From assembly GCA_000182565.2 (NCBI GenBank), contig KQ257455.1: a DNA stretch of 64,000 nucleotides; one strand, written 5' to 3'. Shown piece by piece: positions 2,749 through 61,227 of the stretch. The notes below the pieces were generated by a model that was not told the DNA's origin, did not search any database, and saw only the letters and a list, made by a program, of their open reading frames with translations. A program made the position numbers and the translations under genes. Numbering within the stretch: the stretch's first letter is position 1; each line of letters opens with the position of its first letter. The DNA comes from Spizellomyces punctatus DAOM BR117 (taxonomy: Eukaryota).

Positions 2749-5700
2749 TTATATTCCTATAGGCGCACGCCGCTCTCCAAACGCTTCCATGACGAAATCC
2801 CACAAGAGCACATAAACCTCCCGATTAGCCCCCCCGGCGGACATGGAATGATCGGAGTCAGTATATACTTGCACGCGATAGTTGCGAATGCCATTTCCGG
2901 TTAAGCGCCATACCAAAGACGCAGTGTTTTGAAAATGTACTGCAGAATAGTGACGAAACAAGGACGTTACTAAGAGCGAAAAATAATGACCATCTGAAAT
3001 GAGTAAAATACTCACCATTATCTTGAAGCGTCGGTGAGCGGCGCGGATACCAGCAAGTTAGTTTACTGGACCATAAATTCACGCTACTGCATGCGAACTC
3101 ACCATCAGCTGTTCCATGAACAAGCAAGAACTTGGTCTTTTCAAATCCTTCCATTTCTCTTACCATGCTCTTGTCATAGCCTTCCGGATTCATGCGCGGC
3201 GTCTTCATATACCTTTCAGTATATATCGAGTCATAATACCGCCAATCAGTAACAGGTGCGACAGCCATTCCAACGGCAAATAACCCCGAGTTGGCTTCAA
3301 CCACTTTAGTGGCCATGTAACCCCCATATGACCAACCCCATATAGCTATCCGGCTCGCGTCCACGTACGGCTGCTGACGCAACCATTGCGCCGCTGCTAT
3401 TTGGTCTTCTACTTCCACTGAACCAAGGTGGTTGGCCACCGTCGATCGGTATGCTCGACCCATGAAGCCTGTACCGCGCCCGTCTACGATGATAGAAATA
3501 AATCCGCCAGCACTTGTCACAGCAGTCATAAAATCCACTGAATACGATTGCTGTACCAGCTGCGAGTTGGGCCCACCGTAGACTCGCATCAGCACAGGAT
3601 ATTTCTTCTTTGCATGAGGGTCAAAATCGTATGGAACCTGCATTTGGACGTTCATATTCAGCACGCCACCCTTCCCGTCCGACTTTGCGCCGCTGGGGAT
3701 TTGAAAGAATTTGCGTTTTGGTACCGCGTAGAGGGGCAAAATGTCCCGAAGACGCTGATTATCCGCGACGTCCTGAAACCAGCTCCCGTCGGCTTTCACC
3801 ACTCTGCTCCAGGGTATGTCGGGCCCTCTGTATTGAAGGAGATAGTAAGCACAGCGAGGAGAGAAATTGGCCGTATAATAACCAATGTCTTTCGCATCTG
3901 GGTCTACGGCGGTAGTCCCGTTAGGTTGGAATTCCAGAGGAGGCAAAATGATACTCGAAGAATAGTTCATCGGAGGGGTCAAAGCATGTTTATTCGAACC
4001 ATCTAGATGCACGCTGTACAAGTGTCGCTGCGATGGACCTCTTTCGGTGCTTGTAAAATAGACGATTCCTCTCTCGCCGTCGATCCCGACAATGTCCGCT
4101 ATTTCCCAAAGTCCGCTGGTAAGCCATGCAGTCGGCTTCACTTCGGTCACGGTCGAAAAATACGCAATATGCGCGTAACCGTTTTCGTCCTCCATAACTT
4201 CAAGGTACGATGGATTTTGCCTTCCGACAGCTTTGGAAGGCGGCACAAATACGATCGGTTGTAACCGATTTATCCACCCGTTGTCGCTCACCACATCCTG
4301 TCTAACAAGGTTGCTCTTCCATGTGGCCCCTGTTGCACTGGTCTTCAGTTCCGTCAAAAAAAGCTTCTGGTGGCTTTGTATTCTATTTGTCATCCGGACC
4401 AGCATGGCATCTTCTCTGACCCAGTTGACCTCGACAATGAGACGATCATCGTCAGGGAAATATTGGGCCATGTCAAACTCCACAGGAACATCGAGTCCCG
4501 TTGCGTTTGGAGAAGAAGGTGTCGCGACATGTAGGCTTACAACTGGATTCTGCGCTCCAGGCTTTGGATATTTGATGGACACCTCCTCAGGATAGGACAC
4601 TTTCTGGTTCTTTTCGTAGTACTGCAGATGGTACTCTGGTACCAGTGTTTCGTTGAACTTTAGGTAAGCCAGATGTGTTCCACCAGGTGAGAACCACATT
4701 GCGTCGTGAGTCCCTAGCACTTCCTCTTCATACACCCAGTCCGCTATGCCGTTTATGATGTCTTTCGATCCATCTGTCGTAATCCGCACTTCCGTCTTCG
4801 CATCCATTGTGACGTAAAGATCATTGTCTCTGACCCAGGCAACATGATGACCGGATGGACTCCATAAGGCTAAAGCTACTTTTCCGCTTCCAATCTCACC
4901 GGGTATTGATTTATCGGACTTTGAGGTGGTTAAATGCTCTGCTTTTTTGTCCGCGACGTTCCACACCCAGTAATTTGCAAAGAAAGAGTGCCTCCACCCC
5001 TTCTCATGGTCAGTTTCCAACAGGATGTATTGCAAGTCGCGCGAAATTTTGTAGCTACGGAAATTAATGCGATTCCCGTTGGAGTCTACAGCATCTGCCG
5101 CCTGGAGAAGTGTACTTTTGTTCCCCTGTTCCACATGCTGAATATATATGCTTCCCTCACTTGCAAATGAAAAGTCCCCGTCGTTTCCTAAAGTAATGAT
5201 AAGAATACCGGTTATGCCATATCATTCCTGGACATGACATACCATTCTCCCATTGATACAATGGGAAGCGGGGACCAAACGTGTAATTAAATACGTGACC
5301 TAGCGTGATATTCGGACGGGAGGATCTCTCTACTGACTCATCTGGTTTGGAAATTGAACAGGTTGTTAGTACAGTCAAACGCTCTCCGAGGAGATGACCT
5401 GCATACCTGGGTACGGGCCATTGCTTGCGATTGATGCCAGTACAATCAAAACCAATACCACCGCCAAACCACACATCAGGAACGCTGGCTTTGGTACGGT
5501 TCGCTTGGCATGGCGCTGCAGGATCGACATTGTAAACAATCAAGGGGTGTATGCGGCGACATACATAAGAGCCTCACCTTCGCAACTCTAGCCAACCCTC
5601 CCAATAGTCCTTGTGCAGCAGGCTGCTCCACATCGTCCATATAAGCGTCGTCATACTCTGACAGCTCCTCATCCAATCTACCATGTCTTGGTCGGTCGTC

Positions 5701-18323: not shown

Positions 18324-18588
18324 TGCTCTGCGGTAAGAGGCCAAGCGTTTGCGAAAACCTTGAAGGAAAGTTGCTTTGGTGGTGAATGACTCATCTCAGA
18401 CCACCTTTGCAAATCTGGACGCGTACTTGTGAGCGTTCGCGTTGAGCGACCGTTAATTCACTCTGTACACCACCCAGTCGTACTCCAGAAGCGCCCAAAG
18501 AGCACTCCACTACCTCTTCCTTGTTTGTATCTTCTTCTACATTGTCCTCTGCGGGATACTTGGCGTGTGAATCAGTGAAAGCATTGAG

Positions 18589-19533
18589 ATGACTGACTTT
18601 GACGAACGGCTCCTTCGTGCCATTACGGGAAACACTGGGGTAGAAAGCCACTTTGAGCCGGGTGACCGCCGCAATCCCGACTCAGACCCCGACTCAGATG
18701 ACGGTCTGTCAGACGGTGAGGATGCCGCAACAGAGTTCACTCCGGACATGGACGCAACAACGACCCGCGCCATGTCGGACGCCGCTCTTCGAAGAGCACT
18801 GGACATAGGTGGTGCCAAAACAGGACCAAAGGGCGTAATGGCCGACTATAAATTCCATCAGCGACAGGAGCGTGCAAGACGAGAACTCAAGCAGCAGAAT
18901 GCCGTTAGTAAATATGAGAGCAAGGCTCTGAAAAGCGGTTGGTTAGCCAGACAATTGGCCAGTGAAGAAACCCCACAAAATCAAGGTGCAAGTGCTGATG
19001 ATATTAGCGCGGAGGAGCTTCTAGAGGAGCTGGAGAACGAGGAAGAAGACGAGTATATCAAGGAATATCGCCTCAAACGATTACTGGAGCTCGCTCAGAA
19101 TGCACAACGACCACGTTTTGGAACCGTAGTGGATCTTCAATCTGCAGATGACTACCTTTCCGCGATTGATGACGAAGATCCAAGTGTGACAGTTCTAATC
19201 CACCTTTATCAGCCACGTATCGAAGCTTGCCGAACTGCCAATACTTTAATGGACTTGCTTGCGCAGCGCCATTCACACACAAAATTCTGTCGAATTTTGA
19301 GCCACGTAGCAGATGAAGGCTTTGACCAAGTCGCTTTACCCGCAATGCTGGCATATGTGGGTGGCGAACTGAAGGCAACCGTAATGAGAGTGTTGGATGA
19401 GGTGGAAGGATGGAAACGTACGGGCAGGTGTACCGTGGAGGAGTTTGAAAATGTTCTCACGGAATGGGGCCTGTTGGATGAAGTCTCCATAGTTGGGGAG
19501 AAGCTTGGTGGCATGTGCGTGGGTGGTGTATGA
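18589..19533 (+). CDS. Phosducin-like protein 1 (G-beta/gamma co-chaperone), single exon
   Basis: TGPKGVMADY motif, YRLKRLLEL, FGTVVDL, thioredoxin-like VLIHLY...KFCRI...ALPAMLAY. Confidence 0.9.
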   Translation: MTDFDERLLRAITGNTGVESHFEPGDRRNPDSDPDSDDGLSDGEDAATEFTPDMDATTTRAMSDAALRRALDIGGAKTGPKGVMADYKFHQRQERARRELKQQNAVSKYESKALKSGWLARQLASEETPQNQGASADDISAEELLEELENEEEDEYIKEYRLKRLLELAQNAQRPRFGTVVDLQSADDYLSAIDDEDPSVTVLIHLYQPRIEACRTANTLMDLLAQRHSHTKFCRILSHVADEGFDQVALPAMLAYVGGELKATVMRVLDEVEGWKRTGRCTVEEFENVLTEWGLLDEVSIVGEKLGGMCVGGV

Positions 19534-50497: not shown

Positions 50498-52150
50498 ATG
50501 TCCGGGTTGCAGGACGACCTCGATTACGCAGTATGTTATCGATCTTTCATCATTTGCAGCCTTGGTAAAACCTATTAAATGACTGCTACCCTCTCCAATA
50601 GCTTCATACAACCAAAGTGACGAATAATTACTACGACGAAATCCTAGAGCTTACTGGGAGGGAACTTGAGGAGTTTCCAACACCTATCGACAGGACAGAG
50701 GAGAACGATAGCGTGCAGTCAAGATCAATGGGTACGTCAAGGATCATTCCTCCATTAGGTGTCAGAATGCTTTTGTAATTCATCGCACAGAAGGACACAA
50801 CGAACGCGGTGACAGTCCACCGTCTGCAAACTTGACGGAAAGTGATGAAGAGTATGACGAAGATGAGGAGGAGGATGAGGAAGACATTCCTGCTTCCGTA
50901 CGTATGCGTATCTTGGATTTACTTTGGCGTGTTCTCAACGGATCCCATATCTCATAGGGCATCTCATCCCACCCCGGACGACCGTCCGCAGCCCCTGCCG
51001 GTCGGACAGGTCTAGGAAGACAAAAACAAGATCTCGACGGGGTGACAGTAGGAGGAACCAATGGCTTGCTAGATGACGACGACGAGGATTACGACGAGAA
51101 TGACGACGACTTCTCAACCGGCGGCCATGGTGGATTTTCAACGAAAAGGTATACATCCTGAAATGTCTTGTCATTAGGACAAGGCATGATTGAGACATTT
51201 ATGGTGATTCTCAGCCGAACAAGCAGTTTCGGCGGCGGTGGCACATCTTACAAAGAGCTCTCCGTAAACGACGAACTTCAAGAGCTCTTTCAATATATCC
51301 AACGATATAAACCCCAAGAACAGGAGCTTGAAACGGAATTAAAGTCTTTCATTCCGGACTATGTTCCAGCAATCGGGGATATTGATGCCTTCATCAAGGT
51401 ACAGAGTCCAAATTCAAGTGGCATATCTCTGGCTGTTAACCTCACACTCTTCTCAGATCCCTCGCCCGGACGGAAACCCGGATCAGCTAGGACTGCTTTC
51501 TCTAGATGAACCCAATACCGAGCAATCTGACCCCACCGGTAATAAAATAATACTTGCCATCTGCATTGTTTGCATGTCTAAACTTTGACCAAACCGTAGT
51601 TCTCGATCTCCATCTCCGCGCGATAACCAAATCCACAGCACCAATACCAACAACCGTTCGTTCCATTGACCCTATAAATCTCAAAACAAATCCAAAGCTT
51701 ATTGATGCATGGATCAAGAACACACGAGACCTGCATGCACACAAACCACCCCAAACTGTTCATTATACAAAACGAATGCCCGACATAGAAGAGTTGATGC
51801 AGGTCTGGCCGTCGCAGGTTGAAGAAGGATTGGCAAAGGTGGGACGTACTGCAGGCAATCTGCGAAGACTTCACTTGTACTAACCTTTGCCGGGGTTCCT
51901 GTAGGTTAATCTACCGACTGCAGATATTGACCTTCCCCTCTCACAATTCGCCGCATTCTTGTCACTCATCCTCGACATACCAATTTCCAGTCCATCCCAG
52001 CCCTCAAGTAAAAATCAATCTTCATATCCTTCACAAAAGGGAGCTGCACCAACCCATGTCGTGGAAGCTCTGCATGTCATGTTTACTTTGTATTCAGAAT
52101 TTAAAAACTCGGCACATTTCAAGGCAATGGAACGAAGTGCGCCCAGTTGA
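50498..52150 (+). CDS. IFT46: Intraflagellar transport protein 46 (spliced)
   Basis: Acidic N-terminus; ELFQYIQRYKPQ, FIPDYVPAIGDIDAFIK, LDEP..EQSDPT, MPDIEELMQVWP, LHVMFTLYSEFKNSAHF. Confidence 0.95.
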
Positions 52151-56342: not shown

Positions 56343-56636
56343 TGGTATTAGTGCATGTTCTACTTGCAACACCTGGCTGGCAGGTCGAGCTGTATGAGTA
56401 CGTGTCGGATTACGTAATCAGCTCTCCGACACCAGTAGTTGGCAGACGGTTATCTTGTTCTGCAGACGAGTTCGAAGAGATGTGTGAAGTGCTATCCGAA
56501 GCAGAACAGTCGTCTCACTTTCCTCTAAATAATGTCCAAATCCCCAAAGCAAATAAAAAGCACGTGTTGATCAAAACAAATCCAAGAATTTTTGGACGGA
56601 GGGCTCCCTGTCCCCTAATCATATTGCGATTTCAGC

Positions 56637-59600
56637 ATGTTCATCATTTGTATCAGTTTCTTTATACTGTCTGTTATTGCCCGAACATGTGCTATATCTA
56701 CCAAAGCCGCTCTCTCCCCTCAACACCTGCAACGTCGCGAGAGCACATCGATGAATCCTAGGGCCGGTCATTACTGCGACGGATTACAGCCAATTACCGG
56801 ACAGACAACCGGTTACATAACCTCATATTGGAAAGAAGTACCTGCAAATGTTCAACCGTCCGATTGGACCTTGCCGCCTGTGGATGTTCAATACCGGAAC
56901 CAAATGAATTGCCGGTGGCAGATAGTTGCTGATAAGGGGAAAATCATATCGGTAGTTATCGTTACATATATGGTCTGCTCACATGAGACAATCTGATATA
57001 AAGCAGTTGCTTCTGAACCTAGCTCGAATTCGAGTTCTTTCACACAGAATGCGGCTGGGACTTTGTTGATATCTACGATGGACCAGATACCCAGTCCAGA
57101 CAGTTGGGACACTTATGTGGAAACAGGGGCAAGGAAAGGGGCTTCAACGACGTAATCACATCGTCTAATAACTCAATAACGGTCGTCTTCACATCGGACG
57201 TGGCCATTACGACAACTGGGTTTATTGCCATGTTCAAGGTCATGGGTACGTTCACTTTTGAGCTTCTTGATTCTCAGATGGCATGTTGTTGACCGTGTGC
57301 CCCTTGATAGAGCGGACCAAAATGTGCTTCGACAGCACAGATTGCAGCGGGCACCAGTGCCTTGGAGGGGTGTGCCAGTGTGGAAGTGACCGCAGAGGAG
57401 ATTTTTGCCAATTTTGTAAGGTTTTATTCACAGGCAACACAACGAACATAATCATAATATCCCTTTATTATTGAAGCATCATCAGGCTTTCAGGCCTTTA
57501 CGCCACGAGAGTTTCACTCTGCTGCCTATTCTCCAGCTCAAGATGTGCGTGATGTGATCTTTTGCGTCAATGCTCACGAGACGACGTATTGTTGACCTTT
57601 TCCTTTAGACCATGTACATAACGTTTGGTGAGAGTGATATCCGCGGGCAACCCCCACTGAACGATATGTTTGCCTACCATGTAGGTGAGTCGAGGGGAGC
57701 TGCTCAGAATGCAATGACAGCGTGGCTGACGTTGATATCTGTAATTCAGCTACCAATACGTGGGAGCAGATAACAAATACGAGTAGCGCGCCCGTCGGCC
57801 GGCTGTATCATTCGACGTGGGTTACCGATGACGGTAATCTCATAATGTACGGTGGGTCATATCCGAACGGCATTTCAAATAATGATCTTTGGCGATTTCG
57901 CCCAGGTACATGCTTTTATGTTTGAATGCTTTTAATGTTCTGATGTTCGTGAATAGCTGATTCGGCTGTTATCTGTCGTAGATAAAAAGTCTTGGGACCG
58001 CATTGTAGTACGCTCCGACATAAATGACAGAAAAAACTTGCCTCCCGGAAACTTGAACGGGGCTGCGACTGCACTAGTGCGCAATGGCGGTTCTCCTATG
58101 ATATACGTAGTTGGTGGGTACACCAACGACGCAACAAGAGGAACTCGTGAAGCGTATGTCTTTGATCTTGGTATGCTAATTTGCTTCATTGTTGCCAATC
58201 AGTTGGCATCAGCCACTATTCTCGTCTCATATATGTGGATATGTGTCAGTCGCAGGTGTGTGGACCCAGCTTCCATCGGCCCCAGTCAAAACTTTTGGAG
58301 CGTCTCTCATTTACCACCCCGCTACCAATACGCTTCACCTGATCGGAGGGTACCGGTTTGATGTAGGAGAACCCACACTAGGCTATACCAGTTACGTCTA
58401 CTCCATCGACGCAGGGCTATGGTACGTTGGAGCATGGCAGAGTTATACCACGATGAATATCTGGAATCGTGGTGAATATATCGGAGACGATGTGGGAGTT
58501 GTGACTGGGGGTTTACGACCTCTATTAGTTCAGAATGATATTGACATGGAATGTTTTACGGAGACAGTGAGAGTGCTGGACCTGGGTACGCAAAATATCT
58601 GCTACATTGCAACGAAATCTCTGTAAATCATGCTTACATGTGCTCTCTCTTTTGCAGCCTGCAACAAGATTGTGGGCAAGCAATTGGGCTTTCCCTTTCG
58701 TCGAAAAGGTCACTCGATGGTAGTCACGAACAATGGTACACTGCTTCTAGCTGGCGGGAGCAATGGATTCAACTTGAACGATATCGTTTCCGCGCCATCG
58801 AGCAGTCTCAAACCAACGACATCACGCGAGGATAGAGATGCGTGCGCCGTGCAACAGTGGTGTGAGCTTTACTATGACTGCACGGACTGTCTCGCCAGGA
58901 GCTTTTGCGGATGGTGTGGAGATCGGTGTGTGTATGTTGGAGGAGGCACTGCGACGGTGCCGATGGCGGGAAATGCGACTTGCCCCGGTGCAGTGTCAAA
59001 AAACATTGCGCAATGCCCGCTGAGTGAGTTGAAAATTAATCTCTTGCATGCTTGAGTAAATTGCTCAATGTAGTACTGGGCTTGCATTGCAGGACTCCCT
59101 TTGAAACTTTCGAGTCCAGTAAACGCAACAGTTTCTTTAGGTGGATATGTTGATTATAAAGCCAGCATCGATGCCCCAGACAAAGGTGGGGCAGATCTTT
59201 CAGATCTTTTCGGTCTTATCATGCTGACCTCCATTACCAAGATCTACTTTTCACTGTTTCTGCAAACCCTTCTAGCGCTCACCTCAACCTCACAATCATA
59301 TCCATCCGGCCAATCGGGGTTGTTTCATCTGTGACTGGAACTCTGGTTCTCCTTGCGTCAGACTACCGACAGATACCAGGAGACTACGTTATCCGTGTCA
59401 GCTACCCGGCTCCCGCAAATCAGAGGCGCCAACTCACACAGCCACCAGCCGTACAGTTCACTCTGCTAGTCGAAACAAGGGTACCAGAGGAAACTGGTAG
59501 TGGAACTGGTTCCTCAGGATTTCGGATAGATTCGCAAGACATTACGACGTTTGTGGTGATATTTGTGTCATCTGTGCTACTAAGTATGTCTGCTACGTAC

Positions 59601-60358
59601 CTCCTTCGTCGAATGCGAGAACGACTACGGCTGTTGAGATTGGTGAGGGAAGGCGAGATACCAATTATGCCTAAAGAGCCTCCGAAGATTTACGAGGTTG
59701 AGCTCGAAATGACGGGAATGCCGGGGAGTGAGGCATTACTACGAAGTCGTGCGAGAGCGCGGGGATCCGGGGATACGATTGGGTCAATTCCTCGCCGAAA
59801 AGCGGCTACAGATGGTGCAGAAGCGAAAACGGATCCGGAGGGCTTGGAACTGTATAACCTGCGTGAAGGGCAGATTTTGCGTACGGTACATATGGACGAT
59901 GAGGAGCACAAAGGGGAGTCAAAAACTCCGAGACGTAGAAGTGGAGGACGATCGGGGACCACAAGCATAATACAATACGTGAGTTCCTACTTGGTTCCTC
60001 ATTCAAAGAGCTCATGCCTGATGTACCATGATTACAGCCACTCTCCGTCCACCCGTTTTCATATCTACCTCAGCAGGAAGGGGATGCTTCCACGTCGCCA
60101 GAATCGTCAGATCCTCTAATAACAACCTCTTACCTCATCCTCCTCCCAGGGGCGCATGTTCAAGTTTCTCAAGGGATGCTGCCTTCTGTCCAAATTGCGA
60201 CCGCGGTCCTTTATGACAAGACAGCCAAAAACTCACGCCATACGAATAGTGGTGGACATAGGCAAAGGGGTCGGGTGATGCCTGGTTTTATGAGGGGAAT
60301 TTGGCAATACTGTGTTGACTTGTGGAATATTGAGGTTCTTGTCGGCGGACGCTTTTAG
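56637..60358 (+). CDS. Attractin/MEGF8-like single-pass membrane protein (signal peptide-CUB-EGF-Kelch-PSI-TM-cytoplasmic tail; many exons)
   Basis: Signal peptide; CUB YRNQMNCRWQI...TECGWDFVDIYDG...LCG...VVFTSDVA; EGF CSGHQCLGGVCQC...GDFC; Kelch PREFHSA, GRLYHST, YVVGGY, RRKGHSM; PSI DCTDCL...CGWCGDRC; TM FVVIFVSSVLLSMSATYLL. Confidence 0.82.
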
Positions 60359-61227
60359 ATAGGACGCGGGCGGCGCTATGTATCAGCGTCACGAAAATGA
60401 TTATACTCGAGGTCATCCAGGACTTCCAATCATTGTACAAACGAAGCTATGCTTGTCGCATCTGCTAGACACTGTCTCTTTATCGTGAATCATGGCTCCA
60501 ATAAAAATTCATTACACGCTACAGAGTTGAGCGCTTTACCACAACATGGTTTTTGGATCTGAGAGGCACCATATCAGGTTGAAAGCCGGGTGCTAATCCC
60601 GCTTCCTGCAAGACCGACATGTAGGTGAGAATTGCATACATGCATTCATGGCAAAAACAAGCAGTCTGCCAGATTAAGGGAGGTTGAATGGCCTTTCACA
60701 GAGACTTGAGCACGATCGAAGGAGTGGAGGTCGAGCACGAAGAAACATATCGAGTACAAAAAGGGAAGGCCTTTTATAGGCCACGATGTACTGCCCACTG
60801 CCATAGTACCAACCAAATAATCGACGAATACACTCAATTGCCGAATATGATAAAGGCTTATGTAGTGGTTATTAGCAAAGAAGAACCGGCATTGCCCAGA
60901 TGGAAGGACAAACCTGGATTTGGATTACCTAAGTCATTTAGCCTAATATGGCGTCCGGACAAGTTCGACTTTTAAGATCAAGTTCAACGCGTTCTTGGTG
61001 GTTTGAGCTTTTCTCCATCTAGGTGTTCATTAGTACTTTGTCCCTTGCGGCATACCTGTGTGGCCTTTCTTTGTAGGCTGGAGCTTTACTACAGTAGTCA
61101 AAACCGTGGCGTTACTTCTACACATAGTGACAACGTCTCGTCTCTGAGTTGGCGATAGAGGGGACAGCGTTCCCCAGAGGATCTCCAAGCCATTGGCGCA
61201 AACACTTCGTTTGAAGGTTGCCCCAAT

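Follow-up and report, generated by a model that had tools for sequence, protein, structure and literature searches.

A chytrid gene for an Attractin/MEGF8-like membrane protein suggests that the Attractin-type way of marking surface proteins for removal may predate animals

An Attractin/MEGF8-like gene, with a transcribed 3′ end, is native to the chytrid whose DNA is analysed here, and its occurrence suggests that the Attractin-type way of marking surface proteins for removal may predate animals. With odds somewhat on the favorable side of even, the product represents a divergent branch, in fungi, of the Attractin/MEGF8 family, one that putatively recruits an MGRN1-type RING ligase. The whole stretch of DNA analysed, 64 kb in length, is referred to below as the window.

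Gene structure and ectodomain

The coding region (56637..60358, + strand) runs from an ATG at 56637 to a stop codon at 60356-60358 in 12 exons, and specifies a product of 992 aa. Its 11 GT-AG introns, of 56-85 nt each, leave a single open frame; eight of the 11 are of phase 1.

56637-56951, 57023-57245, 57311-57415, 57477-57544, 57609-57684 and 57750-57905, + strand: exons 1-6, with frame-keeping GT-AG junctions
57982-58170, 58256-58585, 58658-59023, 59093-59185, 59242-59978 and 60038-60358, + strand: exons 7-12, with frame-keeping GT-AG junctions
60207..60488, + strand: transcribed 3′ end, comprising the end of the last exon and ~130 nt of 3′ UTR (RNA run X10)

The model matches full-length chytrid homologues end to end, with residues 5-989 aligning to the homologue P0012 at 36% identity, and with P0002, P0026 and P0017 also aligning as far as residue 989. 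In run X10 the depth on the + side is ~30 over the transcribed 3′ end versus 0-0.6 across the gene body and, because coverage of the latter is so low, splice junctions are not visible in the reads. A pseudogene or a mis-joined model would be in keeping with there being no junctions at that coverage, and with the public gene model of the closest relative differing from the one given here at two places (it is missing the tail exon with conserved strands). However, a frame open over 12 exons, the end-to-end alignment with four full-length homologues, the pile-up of reads at a 3′ end complete with UTR and conservation of the family in four early-diverging fungal phyla make the lack of a functional gene highly improbable.

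The closest protein to the product is from Spizellomyces sp. ‘palustris’, and IFT46 is present in the same 64-kb window, both in accord with the zoosporic fungal host that an earlier note on this DNA had supposed. No paralogue of the gene lies within the window, no RING gene is among the 72 ORFs scanned in it, and a tRNA scan of its whole length found no tRNA.

The modules that precede the membrane-proximal part of the protein are as follows.

56637..56693, + strand: signal peptide, residues 1-19 (hydrophobic window of residues 2-20, mean hydropathy 2.38)
56775..57244, + strand: CUB domain, interrupted by intron 56952-57022 (Pfam CUB on exon 2)
57311..57415, + strand: EGF-like exon with six Cys (57325-57408) and a phase-1 intron on either side
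57497..58791, + strand: Kelch beta-propeller, Attractin/LZTR1 type in Pfam, encoded by exons 4-9 (exon pieces match PF24981)
58843..59019, + strand: PSI-like Cys-rich module (Pfam PSI, exon 9)

The order signal peptide, CUB, EGF, Kelch, PSI, beta domain, TM and tail, as proposed in the earlier note, is borne out by Pfam, hydropathy and AlphaFold2, with PSI falling under the cut-off on its own exon. Exon 2 matches Pfam CUB at E 7.7e-11 (42.7 bits, cut-off 21.4), the start of the domain being encoded in exon 1, and the TECGWD motif to which the note had drawn attention is at 57044-57061 and unchanged in 6/6 aligned chytrid homologues. With the EGF exon of this gene Pfam gives EB only (E 0.14). 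EGF_TEN is found in three and EGF_Teneurin in two of 30 homologues, and the same Pfam EGF family stands before the propeller in L080, an Attractin ORF used for comparison (propeller 320 bits, PSI, EGF_LMN_ATRN, GBD_ATRN). The propeller exon pieces match Beta-prop_ATRN-LZTR1 (PF24981) at E 2e-8, 0.0021 and 0.0013, scores that are under the cut-off because these are pieces and not the whole domain; whole homologues reach 120-204 bits, where the cut-off is 50 (P0002 119.8, P0012 127.7), and all 30 family members match at E<=0.01. The PSI match of exon 9 (E 5.7e-4, 20.6 bits) is slightly under its cut-off of 23.1 and has counterparts in 3/30 homologues, and the Cys pattern C..C.DC....C.WC is conserved in the family consensus. 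The N-terminal order CUB, EGF and Kelch propeller, within a type I membrane protein, is present. EGF_LMN_ATRN, EGF_laminin and lectin families are matched by none of the 30 members at E<=0.01 in Pfam, whereas the Attractin ORF of L080 and a further locus, L097, do match families of the lectin and laminin-EGF type.

Every one of these domains is promiscuous, which raises the alternative of convergent assembly, in which mobile CUB, EGF, Kelch and PSI modules came together separately in an early fungus, and chance or composition produced the tail matches described below. The 8/11 phase-1 introns, and an EGF exon that is 1-1, are as expected of shuffled modules, and in a profile search of 1.84 billion representatives the best 150 matches listed are crowded with unrelated multi-CUB and multi-Kelch proteins and include no animal Attractin. 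(Word-indexed protein searches also gave fungal or unrelated Kelch proteins only and no animal Attractin, a limit of the word filter and not evidence.) Against such an origin are a module order that is the same as in Attractin, an ATRN/LZTR1-type propeller in every member and, from the C-terminal part of the protein, the observations of the next section.

Stem, membrane helix and cytoplasmic tail

From the end of the PSI-like module to the stop codon the following features are distinguished.

59020..59540, + strand: juxtamembrane beta-sandwich (stem), interrupted by intron 59186-59241 (AlphaFold2 strands, pLDDT 80-93)
59541..59657, + strand: TM helix (59541-59606) continuing as a basic cytoplasmic helix (59607-59657) (exon-11 model)
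59658..59711, + strand: hinge and first cytoplasmic strand, IPIMPKEPPKIYEVELEM, in the place of animal MASRPFAxVxV
59871..59894, + strand: conserved fungal tail block QILRTVHM, of I-L-x-S-A type (family alignment, regex count)
59976..60214, + strand: three hydrophobic tail blocks, of which the first, YPLSVHPF, spans intron 59979-60037 and is conserved family-wide
60116-60154, + strand: hydrophobic tail block LITTSYLILLPGA, conserved family-wide
60176-60214, + strand: hydrophobic tail block MLPSVQIATAVLY, conserved family-wide
60299..60355, + strand: extreme C-terminal motif IWQYCVDLWNIEVLVGGRF, common to close relatives only (which we take to be Spizellomycetales), a predicted helix in the homologue P0099

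With six N-x-S/T sequons outside versus none inside, 21 Cys versus one, and a net charge of +5 after the TM (residues 741-762), the product is a predicted type I surface glycoprotein. AlphaFold2 renders the TM and the basic helix as a single helix of 39 residues (H97-135 in the exon-11 model, H311-349 in P0099; pLDDT 83-97), and Mortierellomycota members possess long E/R-rich helices.

The nearest solved folds to the stem, as the best VIA matches, are the SIDT2/SIDT1 ectodomain (Z 5.1-4.7, 75-84 aligned) and the ColG collagen-binding domain (Z 4.9, rmsd 2.0, 60 aligned), at a Z of ~5 where shared arrangement alone is frequent. Williams et al. name the same two, the SIDT1/2 ectodomain and the ColG domain, as neighbors of the MEGF8/Attractin stem. 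No MEGF8 chain is among the 50 fold matches listed, from libraries that may not include one, and Foldseek with the exon-11 model gave nothing at E<=0.001. At the sequence level, identity to the Attractin stem of L080 is 48% across 25 columns (score 23.2 versus a null of ~11). Pfam GBD_ATRN is matched by 0/30 fungal members and also by 0/3 MEGF8-type ORFs. Neither HMMER nor hhalign links the fungal stem to MEGF8-type stems (E 0.42), and the latter are likewise unlinked to those of Attractin type (E 0.86).

The tail, of 230 residues, has at the position of MASRPFA a hinge of PKEPP type, [ML]PKEPPxh[YF]xVxL; the literal animal motif, sought as M[AGS][ST][RK]P[FYL], is in 0/163 proteins. The hinge Pro is 24 residues past the first basic residue in the gene here and 25 in L080, and the spacing of 24 recurs in 11/19 non-Mortierella members. 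When an Attractin/MEGF8 profile is aligned to exon 11 by hhalign, IMPKEPPKIYEVELE is placed on QMASRPFSHVLVELQ (E 0.025). The three hydrophobic blocks are predicted to be beta-strands in P0099 (E416-420, E430-438, E451-459; pLDDT 60-77), the hinge strand being without structure in that monomer prediction, and have a weak colinear match to PIALEP / LSLLIRLP / GLAIAS of the Attractin tail.

The Attractin and MEGF8 tails used for comparison are from metagenome contigs and were confirmed as genuine by Pfam matches and by comparison with 9qqs_B, the solved chain of MEGF8; L019 is a second Attractin locus, and the MEGF8-type tails match PDB 9qqs_B at 1.4e-42. Stem, TM, helix-hinge and three-strand tail are in the same order in the fungal family and in Attractin/MEGF8, each match being weak (E ~1e-2 to 1e-4), and overall the observed module scores were attained in 0-4% of trials in shuffle controls. 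When 9,438 six-frame ORFs from 117 loci, the decoys among them being mostly bacterial and not eukaryotic type I proteins, were searched with the fungal tail HMM, the best 12 were all MASRPF loci, and 11 of the top 12 still were when the HMM was built without the protein P0141. L080 was matched at E 0.0024, colinearly across the entire tail; some of the MEGF8-type matches put PKEPP onto a poly-Pro run. By hhalign the juxtamembrane and TM region gave E 1.4e-6 and, with module borders set by eye, module 1 gave 2e-4 (LPKEP on MASRP) and module 2, the three strands with P0141 in the alignment, gave 1.7e-3, versus 0.68 and 0.72 for the non-cognate pairs. For each module 0/100 shuffles attained the observed score; with block-wise shuffles preserving the TM run the figure was 0/300, and for helix and hinge alone 1/300. 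Without P0141 the three-strand module gave E 0.034 and was attained by 1/100, 6/300 and 13/300 shuffles, a few null scores >130 on 7-11 columns in two runs, probable artefacts of gap-rich shuffled columns, being counted as attaining it.

P0141 bridges the two groups, since it is joined both to Attractin (3e-36, 569 columns) and to a fungal tail HMM made without it (3e-7). It is also recovered by the Attractin/MEGF8 tail HMM (E 1.1e-3), a search in which none of the named chytrid proteins was. BLASTP of P0012 against L080 independently recovers the same colinear path from stem to tail, only at E 0.6. The fungal tail profile has no PDB match at E<=10, though MEGF8 chains are present there and the Attractin tail finds them at 3.5e-12. 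The last exon alone has no meaningful match, exon 11 compared with the stem and tail of L080 by BLASTP gives nothing significant, and an HMM of helix plus hinge alone recovers no animal tail. With the whole-family profile only CUB and Kelch chains are among the 60 of 205 PDB matches listed, and Foldseek and VIA-wide searches with the P0099 model gave Kelch propellers only. In the Atlas, the look-alikes of P0141 (0.88-0.89) and those of P0012 from a chytrid (0.76-0.83), to be taken as leads only, consist entirely of Attractin or ATRNL1 clusters.

The statistics of tail and stem are marginal singly, as convergent assembly would have it. However, four separate C-terminal modules match with their order kept and nearly equal spacing, and this, with the BLASTP path and the double connection of P0141, renders independent assembly unlikely. 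Homology of the C-terminal modules to the Stem-TM-helix-tail unit of Attractin/MEGF8 is, in contrast, considered probable. The resemblance on which the earlier note was built is real in terms of the 30/30 propellers, the Atlas clusters and the weak matches that run colinearly from the stem through TM and hinge to the tail.

Distribution among fungi and a putative partnership with MGRN1

Members of the family occur throughout Chytridiomycota and Blastocladiomycota, and Mortierellomycota and Endogonales, which are non-flagellated, have it too. Genera with members include Mortierella, Podila, Haplosporangium and Jimgerdemannia, and the family is therefore not bound to zoospores or flagella; the view in the earlier note that moulds are not known to have such a protein is not supported. 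Vertical descent, for which that note argued, is supported within fungi by a gene tree that agrees with taxonomy. In public annotation its members are ‘hypothetical’ or ‘CUB domain-containing’, with two called ‘MEGF8’, and literature searches, partly swamped by the word ‘attracting’, found no report of a fungal Attractin or MEGF8.

Pertinent to function is the distribution of the ligase. The MGRN1 tree of Kong et al. includes Spizellomyces, Batrachochytrium, Allomyces, Catenaria, Mortierella and Basidiobolus, with an MGRN1 orthologue of Spizellomyces punctatus listed in the tree file (XP_016604932.1) and none of the four Dikarya names searched. The Attractin-like family is present in five of these six fungal genera.

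A homologue of Attractin/MEGF8 may nevertheless have another job, as a surface receptor or in adhesion, with CUB and propeller binding carbohydrate or protein and a tail that has endocytic or cytoskeletal partners and no MGRN1. The replacement of MASRPFA throughout the fungal family is pertinent to this, as its deletion in mouse and fly is reported to abolish MGRN1 binding; the similarity of the fungal tails to those of animals is weak, long inserts are found that are specific to particular lineages, and a C-terminal helix is confined to one clade. However, Williams et al. report that MASRPFA serves as a flexible linker, with recognition being not by this motif but via the next strand and a three-stranded sheet, and the fungal family conserves predicted equivalents of the post-hinge strand and the three-stranded sheet. 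With the co-occurrence of family and MGRN1 in the published tree also counting against it, a job apart from MGRN1 is thought rather unlikely.

For a branch of the family that recruits the ligase, an evenly balanced proposal by analogy with animals is that the tail would fold together with an MGRN1-type RING ligase, and that this unit would hold the RING beside the membrane. Neighboring membrane proteins would, because of that position, be ubiquitylated and endocytosed, and it would fall to the ectodomain to select or sense the partner. That an Attractin-type adaptor and MGRN1 already constituted a membrane-tethered ligase in the animal-fungal ancestor, and that Chytridiomycota, Blastocladiomycota, Mortierellomycota and Endogonales retain it while Dikarya have lost it, is a tentative suggestion, with the chances slightly against it. 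If true, MASRPFA would be a later, animal-side fixation of the hinge, the sole shared requirement being that a Pro lies a set distance away from the membrane, and chytrids would provide a unicellular setting, with just one short adaptor, for finding ancestral substrates. The natural variation in fungi would also part what a hinge needs (position, Pro and following strand) from animal-specific traits.

In Pusapati 2018, conservation of MEGF8 is given as metazoans and choanoflagellates. The Kong 2020 preprint has the MASRPFA family in Filozoa, ‘restricted to animal-like eukaryotes’, and MGRN1 much more widespread, from which its authors reason that there must be different adaptors elsewhere. As far as fungi are concerned, a branch of the adaptor family among them would close this gap and move the origin of the system to the opisthokont ancestor.

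Comparison with known systems

Attractin and ATRNL1 (Distracted in the fly) are type I proteins with, as here, CUB, Teneurin-type EGF, ATRN/LZTR1 propeller and then PSI (PSI-like in the fungal protein), followed by stem, TM, basic helix, Pro hinge, strand, disordered insert and three hydrophobic strands (stem and strands being predicted in the fungal protein), of which the types are P-[LI]-[AS]-x-E, h-h-h-h-x-[FL]-P-G and a strand rich in G/A-T/S. The fungal protein is shorter, at ~990 aa versus ~1,140 aa or more for the L080 ORF, and is without C-type lectin, laminin-type EGF and further PSI repeats (0/30). It has [ML]PKEPP for MASRPF and a stem to which GBD_ATRN is blind, and the likeness of its tail is visible through profiles only (E 1e-2 to 1e-4).

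With MEGF8, solved in association with MOSMO and MGRN1 (9qqs_B), the plan of Stem, TM, helix, hinge and tail is probably shared, fungi keeping one putative post-hinge strand and three predicted later ones. MEGF8 differs in having two CUB-EGF-Kelch-PSI repeats, many EGF modules and a stem that binds MOSMO, the fungal protein having one repeat. (One member, P0025, only appears doubled, since its model runs two tandem genes together.)

Among Kelch proteins LZTR1 is the best solved-structure sequence match of the propeller (9mey_B, E 2.1e-10 with P0002; Z 15.8), but it and other Kelch propeller proteins are cytosolic and without CUB, PSI, stem, TM or tail. GDU1 of plants is small and is not known to have an ectodomain of the Attractin-like kind. 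The GDU1-LOG2 pair, compared here by published description, is similar in that a short cytoplasmic motif of a single-pass membrane protein recruits a RING ligase of the MGRN1 family, and so MGRN1-type ligases do use adaptors that are not those of animals.

Gene model, introns and expression

The coding frame of the gene, on the + strand, begins with an ATG at 56637 and is closed by the stop at 60356-60358; its 12 exons are separated by 11 GT-AG introns of 56-85 nt, and the predicted product has 992 residues. Junctions were set by taking the shortest intron that keeps the frame with a GT[AG] donor, the first having two possible donors, of which 56952 is the one backed by the deposited model of the nearest relative. 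Residues 5-989 align to the full-length chytrid homologue P0012 at 36% identity, and alignment up to residue 989 was also obtained with three others (P0002, P0026 and P0017). Eight of the 11 introns are in phase 1 and three in phase 0; the phase-1 excess has P = 0.004 if a background of 0.3 is assumed. A single exon, bordered on each side by a phase-1 intron, makes up the EGF module. Phase-1 introns and 1-1 module exons are a pattern known from the shuffled extracellular modules of animals; here this animal-style pattern is found in a fungal gene.

At 0.47-0.50, the gene has the same G+C as neighbouring genes, which are ordinary eukaryotic ones including that for IFT46. Pfam on open frames gave:

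51162-51880, + strand, IFT46 (flagellar transport protein)
18571-19530, + strand, phosducin-like protein
2861-5221, - strand, DPP IV-type peptidase

Further neighbours seen in this way are a peroxidase, SNO glutaminase, ATP-grasp, CDT1, an ABC1 kinase, MFS and LRR proteins; no RING ligase was found among the neighbouring window genes by the same scan.

Three DNA runs match the gene stretch without any difference, introns included, and an RNA run with the same species label has + side reads at 60207-60488 at a depth of ~30, covering the 3′ part of the last exon and ~130 nt past the stop. The gene is native and expressed. The rival reading that the feature is a non-gene could draw on the gene-body RNA depth of 0-0.6 in that run, at which splice junctions are not visible, and would have to accommodate near full-length alignment to chytrid homologues and the pile over its 3′ end. 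A separate RNA pile is present at 56400-56580 (depth 52) with a poly(A) loose end at 56580; the upstream + strand transcript thus stops ~57 nt short of the ATG, leaving hardly any space for a promoter and 5′ UTR.

Ectodomain, family members and gene tree

The window protein was scanned with Pfam exon by exon, whole-protein work being done on stored homologues. The features found on window exons, all + strand, were:

CUB, E 7.7e-11
PF24981 (Attractin/LZTR1 propeller) pieces, E 2e-8, 2e-3 and 1e-3
PSI, E 5.7e-4, slightly below cut-off

The stem, TM and tail had no Pfam match. In whole homologues PF24981 scores 120-204 bits against a curated cut-off of 50, and CUB 53-67 bits, above its curated cut-off. 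Over 30 members Pfam found PF24981 in all, CUB in 24, PSI in three, EGF_TEN in three and EGF_Teneurin in two, with GBD_ATRN (the Attractin stem model), laminin-type EGF and lectin families in none. TECGWD, at 57044-57061, is unchanged in six aligned homologues, and the protein has the predicted topology of a type I glycoprotein.

The matches listed by the protein searches include no animal Attractin, and for comparison metagenome contigs were scanned for DNA able to encode MASRPF[A/S]xVxV, the animal cytoplasmic motif; most of the 117 loci so obtained are chance matches. Two groups have the motif ~25 residues past a TM helix. In the Attractin group, a 1,139-residue ORF of locus L080 carries a propeller (320 bits), PSI, EGF_LMN_ATRN and GBD_ATRN, and L019 has PSI, laminin EGF and GBD_ATRN. 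A profile of the MEGF8-type group matches the solved chain 9qqs_B (‘Isoform 2 of MEGF8’) at E 1.4e-42, and one of its loci, L097, has laminin/attractin EGF exons upstream. In L037, L097 and L059 of this group the ~150 residues preceding the TM match no Pfam family, GBD_ATRN included, so that the Pfam stem model is limited to the Attractin branch.

P0141, an unnamed metagenome protein, matches Attractin at 3e-36 over 569 columns, from propeller through PSI repeats, and a fungal tail HMM built without it at 3e-7; judged by sequence, it bridges the fungal family and Attractin. Convergent assembly of the domain architecture would be compatible with the phase-1 introns and the 1-1 EGF exon, and with tail and stem statistics that are marginal one by one; it has against it this bridge and the PF24981 propeller common to all 30 members. 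Homology of the ectodomain core to Attractin/MEGF8 is well supported. The protein represented by P0141, P0153 and P0154 is 941 residues long and has CUB, a propeller, several PSI-like repeats, a TM and a tail lacking MASRPF. Its origin may be a non-fungal lineage, and its tail blocks are the most Attractin-like of those compared.

Nearest in sequence is P0001 of Spizellomyces sp. ‘palustris’, deposited as a ‘hypothetical protein’ and 90% identical on exon 11 and 86% over the whole protein. Its public model reads the EGF exon in a different frame and extends into the last intron, and consequently the deposited 893-aa protein is without the EGF module and without the last exon with its conserved tail strands. 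A profile of six chytrid proteins was searched against 1.84 billion representatives; the matches listed are crowded by multi-CUB proteins and also include many that span the profile from CUB to tail in a single stretch. The tail HMM matched 35 of 163 collected proteins at E<=0.001 (14 of the 35 had served to build it), and 28 of the 30 whose names were looked up are fungal, nearly all family members being publicly named ‘hypothetical’ or ‘CUB domain-containing’:

Chytrids: many members, including Batrachochytrium and Gonapodya
Blastocladiomycota: Allomyces, Catenaria, Paraphysoderma, Sorochytrium
Mortierellomycota: Mortierella, Podila, Haplosporangium
Endogonales: Jimgerdemannia

Phylum assignment was checked for four genera and is presumed for the remainder. 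No member from Dikarya is among the family proteins found, which does not prove absence. A tie between the system and zoospores or flagella finds no support, because the non-flagellated Mortierellomycota and Endogonales retain the family.

With the L080 Attractin ORF as root, a quick maximum-likelihood tree (35 rows, 836 columns) has Blastocladiomycota as one group (SH-aLRT 99), the core chytrids as another (98) and Jimgerdemannia together with Mortierellomycota (91), with P0141 outside every named fungus (98). The window protein falls within a clade of close relatives (99), which we take to be Spizellomycetales. Restricted to close relatives (P0002, P0012, P0017, P0099, P0026) is an extreme C-terminal, predicted helical motif, W-[QE]-[YF]-x-x-D-[ILV]-W-x-[IV]-E-x-L-[LV]-G, at 60299-60355 in the window. 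Six Mortierellomycota proteins (P0123, P0124, P0129, P0135, P0143, P0106) have an E/R-rich helix of 50-60 residues after the TM and K-P-[MFL]-Y-R-[VI]-V-[VL] in place of PKEPP; their tails are of at least 500 residues, with VFPGD and LPPMAIGT blocks still kept. In Gorgonomyces P0025 (1470 aa) the CUB, the propeller and the TM-plus-tail unit each occur twice, the TM helices lying at 633 and ~1345; most likely these are two tandem paralogues joined by annotation, a MEGF8-like double repeat being disfavoured.

Matches between fungal and animal tails

The search space for the fungal tail HMM was the 9,438 six-frame ORFs of all 117 loci, the decoys being mostly bacterial. Ranks 1-12 are all ORFs from MASRPF loci, with L080 (E 0.0024) in a single alignment through TM, basic helix, hinge and then tail blocks, P-I-A-L-E-P, L-S-L-L-I-R-L-P and G-L-A-I-A-S aligning in order. 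Without the TM part L019, L055 and L080 rank 1-3, but at E 0.1-0.4. When P0141 is left out, MASRPF tails still take 11 of the 12 best places, at E 0.06-1.2. For scale, the L080 Attractin tail detects the MEGF8 chain at 3.5e-12.

Profile-profile comparison, with module borders drawn by eye, gave E 1.4e-6 for the juxtamembrane-plus-TM stretch, 2e-4 for the TM-to-hinge module, with LPKEP placed over MASRP, and 1.7e-3 for the three-strand module, against 0.7 for non-cognate pairs. None of 100 column shuffles attained the observed score of each module; with the hydrophobic run kept none of 300 did, and for helix plus hinge alone one of 300. Removal of P0141 takes the three-strand module to E 0.034, attained by 1/100, 6/300 and 13/300 shuffles. 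The animal profile aligns to window exon 11 over 56 columns in the expected register, IMPKEPPKIYEVELE over QMASRPFSHVLVELQ (E 0.025). Of 19 members that are not from Mortierellomycota, 11 have the hinge Pro 24 residues past the first basic residue; the distance is 25 in L080 and, by hand count, also 25 in MEGF8-type tails. The fungal and Attractin stem profiles share 25 columns at 48% identity, scoring 23.2 against a null of ~11, attained by 0/60, 4/300 and 4/264 shuffles (in one run all four being odd outliers above 130).

MASRPF is absent from all proteins collected, and the window last exon alone has no match to animal tails. The animal tail HMM matched P0141 at 1.1e-3 and no named chytrid, some MEGF8-type matches place PKEPP over a poly-Pro run, and the fungal tail profile has no match in the PDB at E<=10, though MEGF8 is present there. 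MEGF8 and Attractin stems could not be aligned to each other, which fits their strong divergence as given in a J Cell Sci 2025 paper, where stem, TM, helix and tail are the common unit of the family.

A putative ligase partner and the predicted fold

A literature search for fungal Attractin or MEGF8 found no paper. In a preprint by Kong et al., the MEGF8 tail recruits the RING E3 ligase MGRN1, and the MASRPFA family occurs in Filozoa, confined to animal-like eukaryotes. The fungal clade of its MGRN1 tree has Spizellomyces punctatus, Batrachochytrium, Allomyces, Catenaria, Mortierella and Basidiobolus, and the tree lacks the names Saccharomyces, Aspergillus, Neurospora and Cryptococcus; five of these six genera of the fungal clade also have the family described here. 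A preprint by Williams et al. finds MASRPFA to be a flexible linker, MGRN1 recognition being by the strand that follows it, paired with the RING domain, and also by a three-stranded sheet, held by pre-engager and engager domains.

For P0099, a Geranomyces protein of 511 aa, AlphaFold2 (30-row alignment, mean pLDDT 74) predicts half a propeller, an eight-strand sandwich at 191-292, a single helix (311-349) that crosses the membrane and continues into the cytoplasm, and, after a disordered stretch, strands at 416-420, 430-438 and 451-459, which fall on the three conserved blocks. Four weak colinear matches together with this predicted fold support probable homology of the C-terminal unit. A homologue of Attractin/MEGF8 whose tail has a different function would suit the absence of MASRPF, and leaves aside the conserved strands and the co-occurrence with MGRN1, from which a link to an MGRN1-type ligase is inferred. 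Most likely the gene is a divergent fungal Attractin/MEGF8 branch that keeps the membrane-proximal unit, and that unit would tether an MGRN1-type ligase to the membrane.

Fold searches with the P0099 model matched the propeller only. The window exon 11 model has stem strands like those of P0099 and a 39-residue helix (pLDDT 83-97), and gave no significant match with Foldseek. With an all-against-representatives aligner, the SIDT2 and SIDT1 ectodomains (Z 5.1, 5.0, 4.9, 4.7) and collagenase collagen-binding/pre-peptidase C-terminal domains (1nqd, Z 4.9, rmsd 2.0 over 60 residues; also 5sv5 and 5iku) are within the top ten of 48,161 chains, a Z of ~5 being weak. Neighbours of the MEGF8/Attractin stem, according to Williams et al., are SIDT1 ECDII and a Clostridium histolyticum collagenase domain, so that the predicted fungal stem, at that weak Z, and the published animal one have SIDT and collagenase domains as common fold neighbours.
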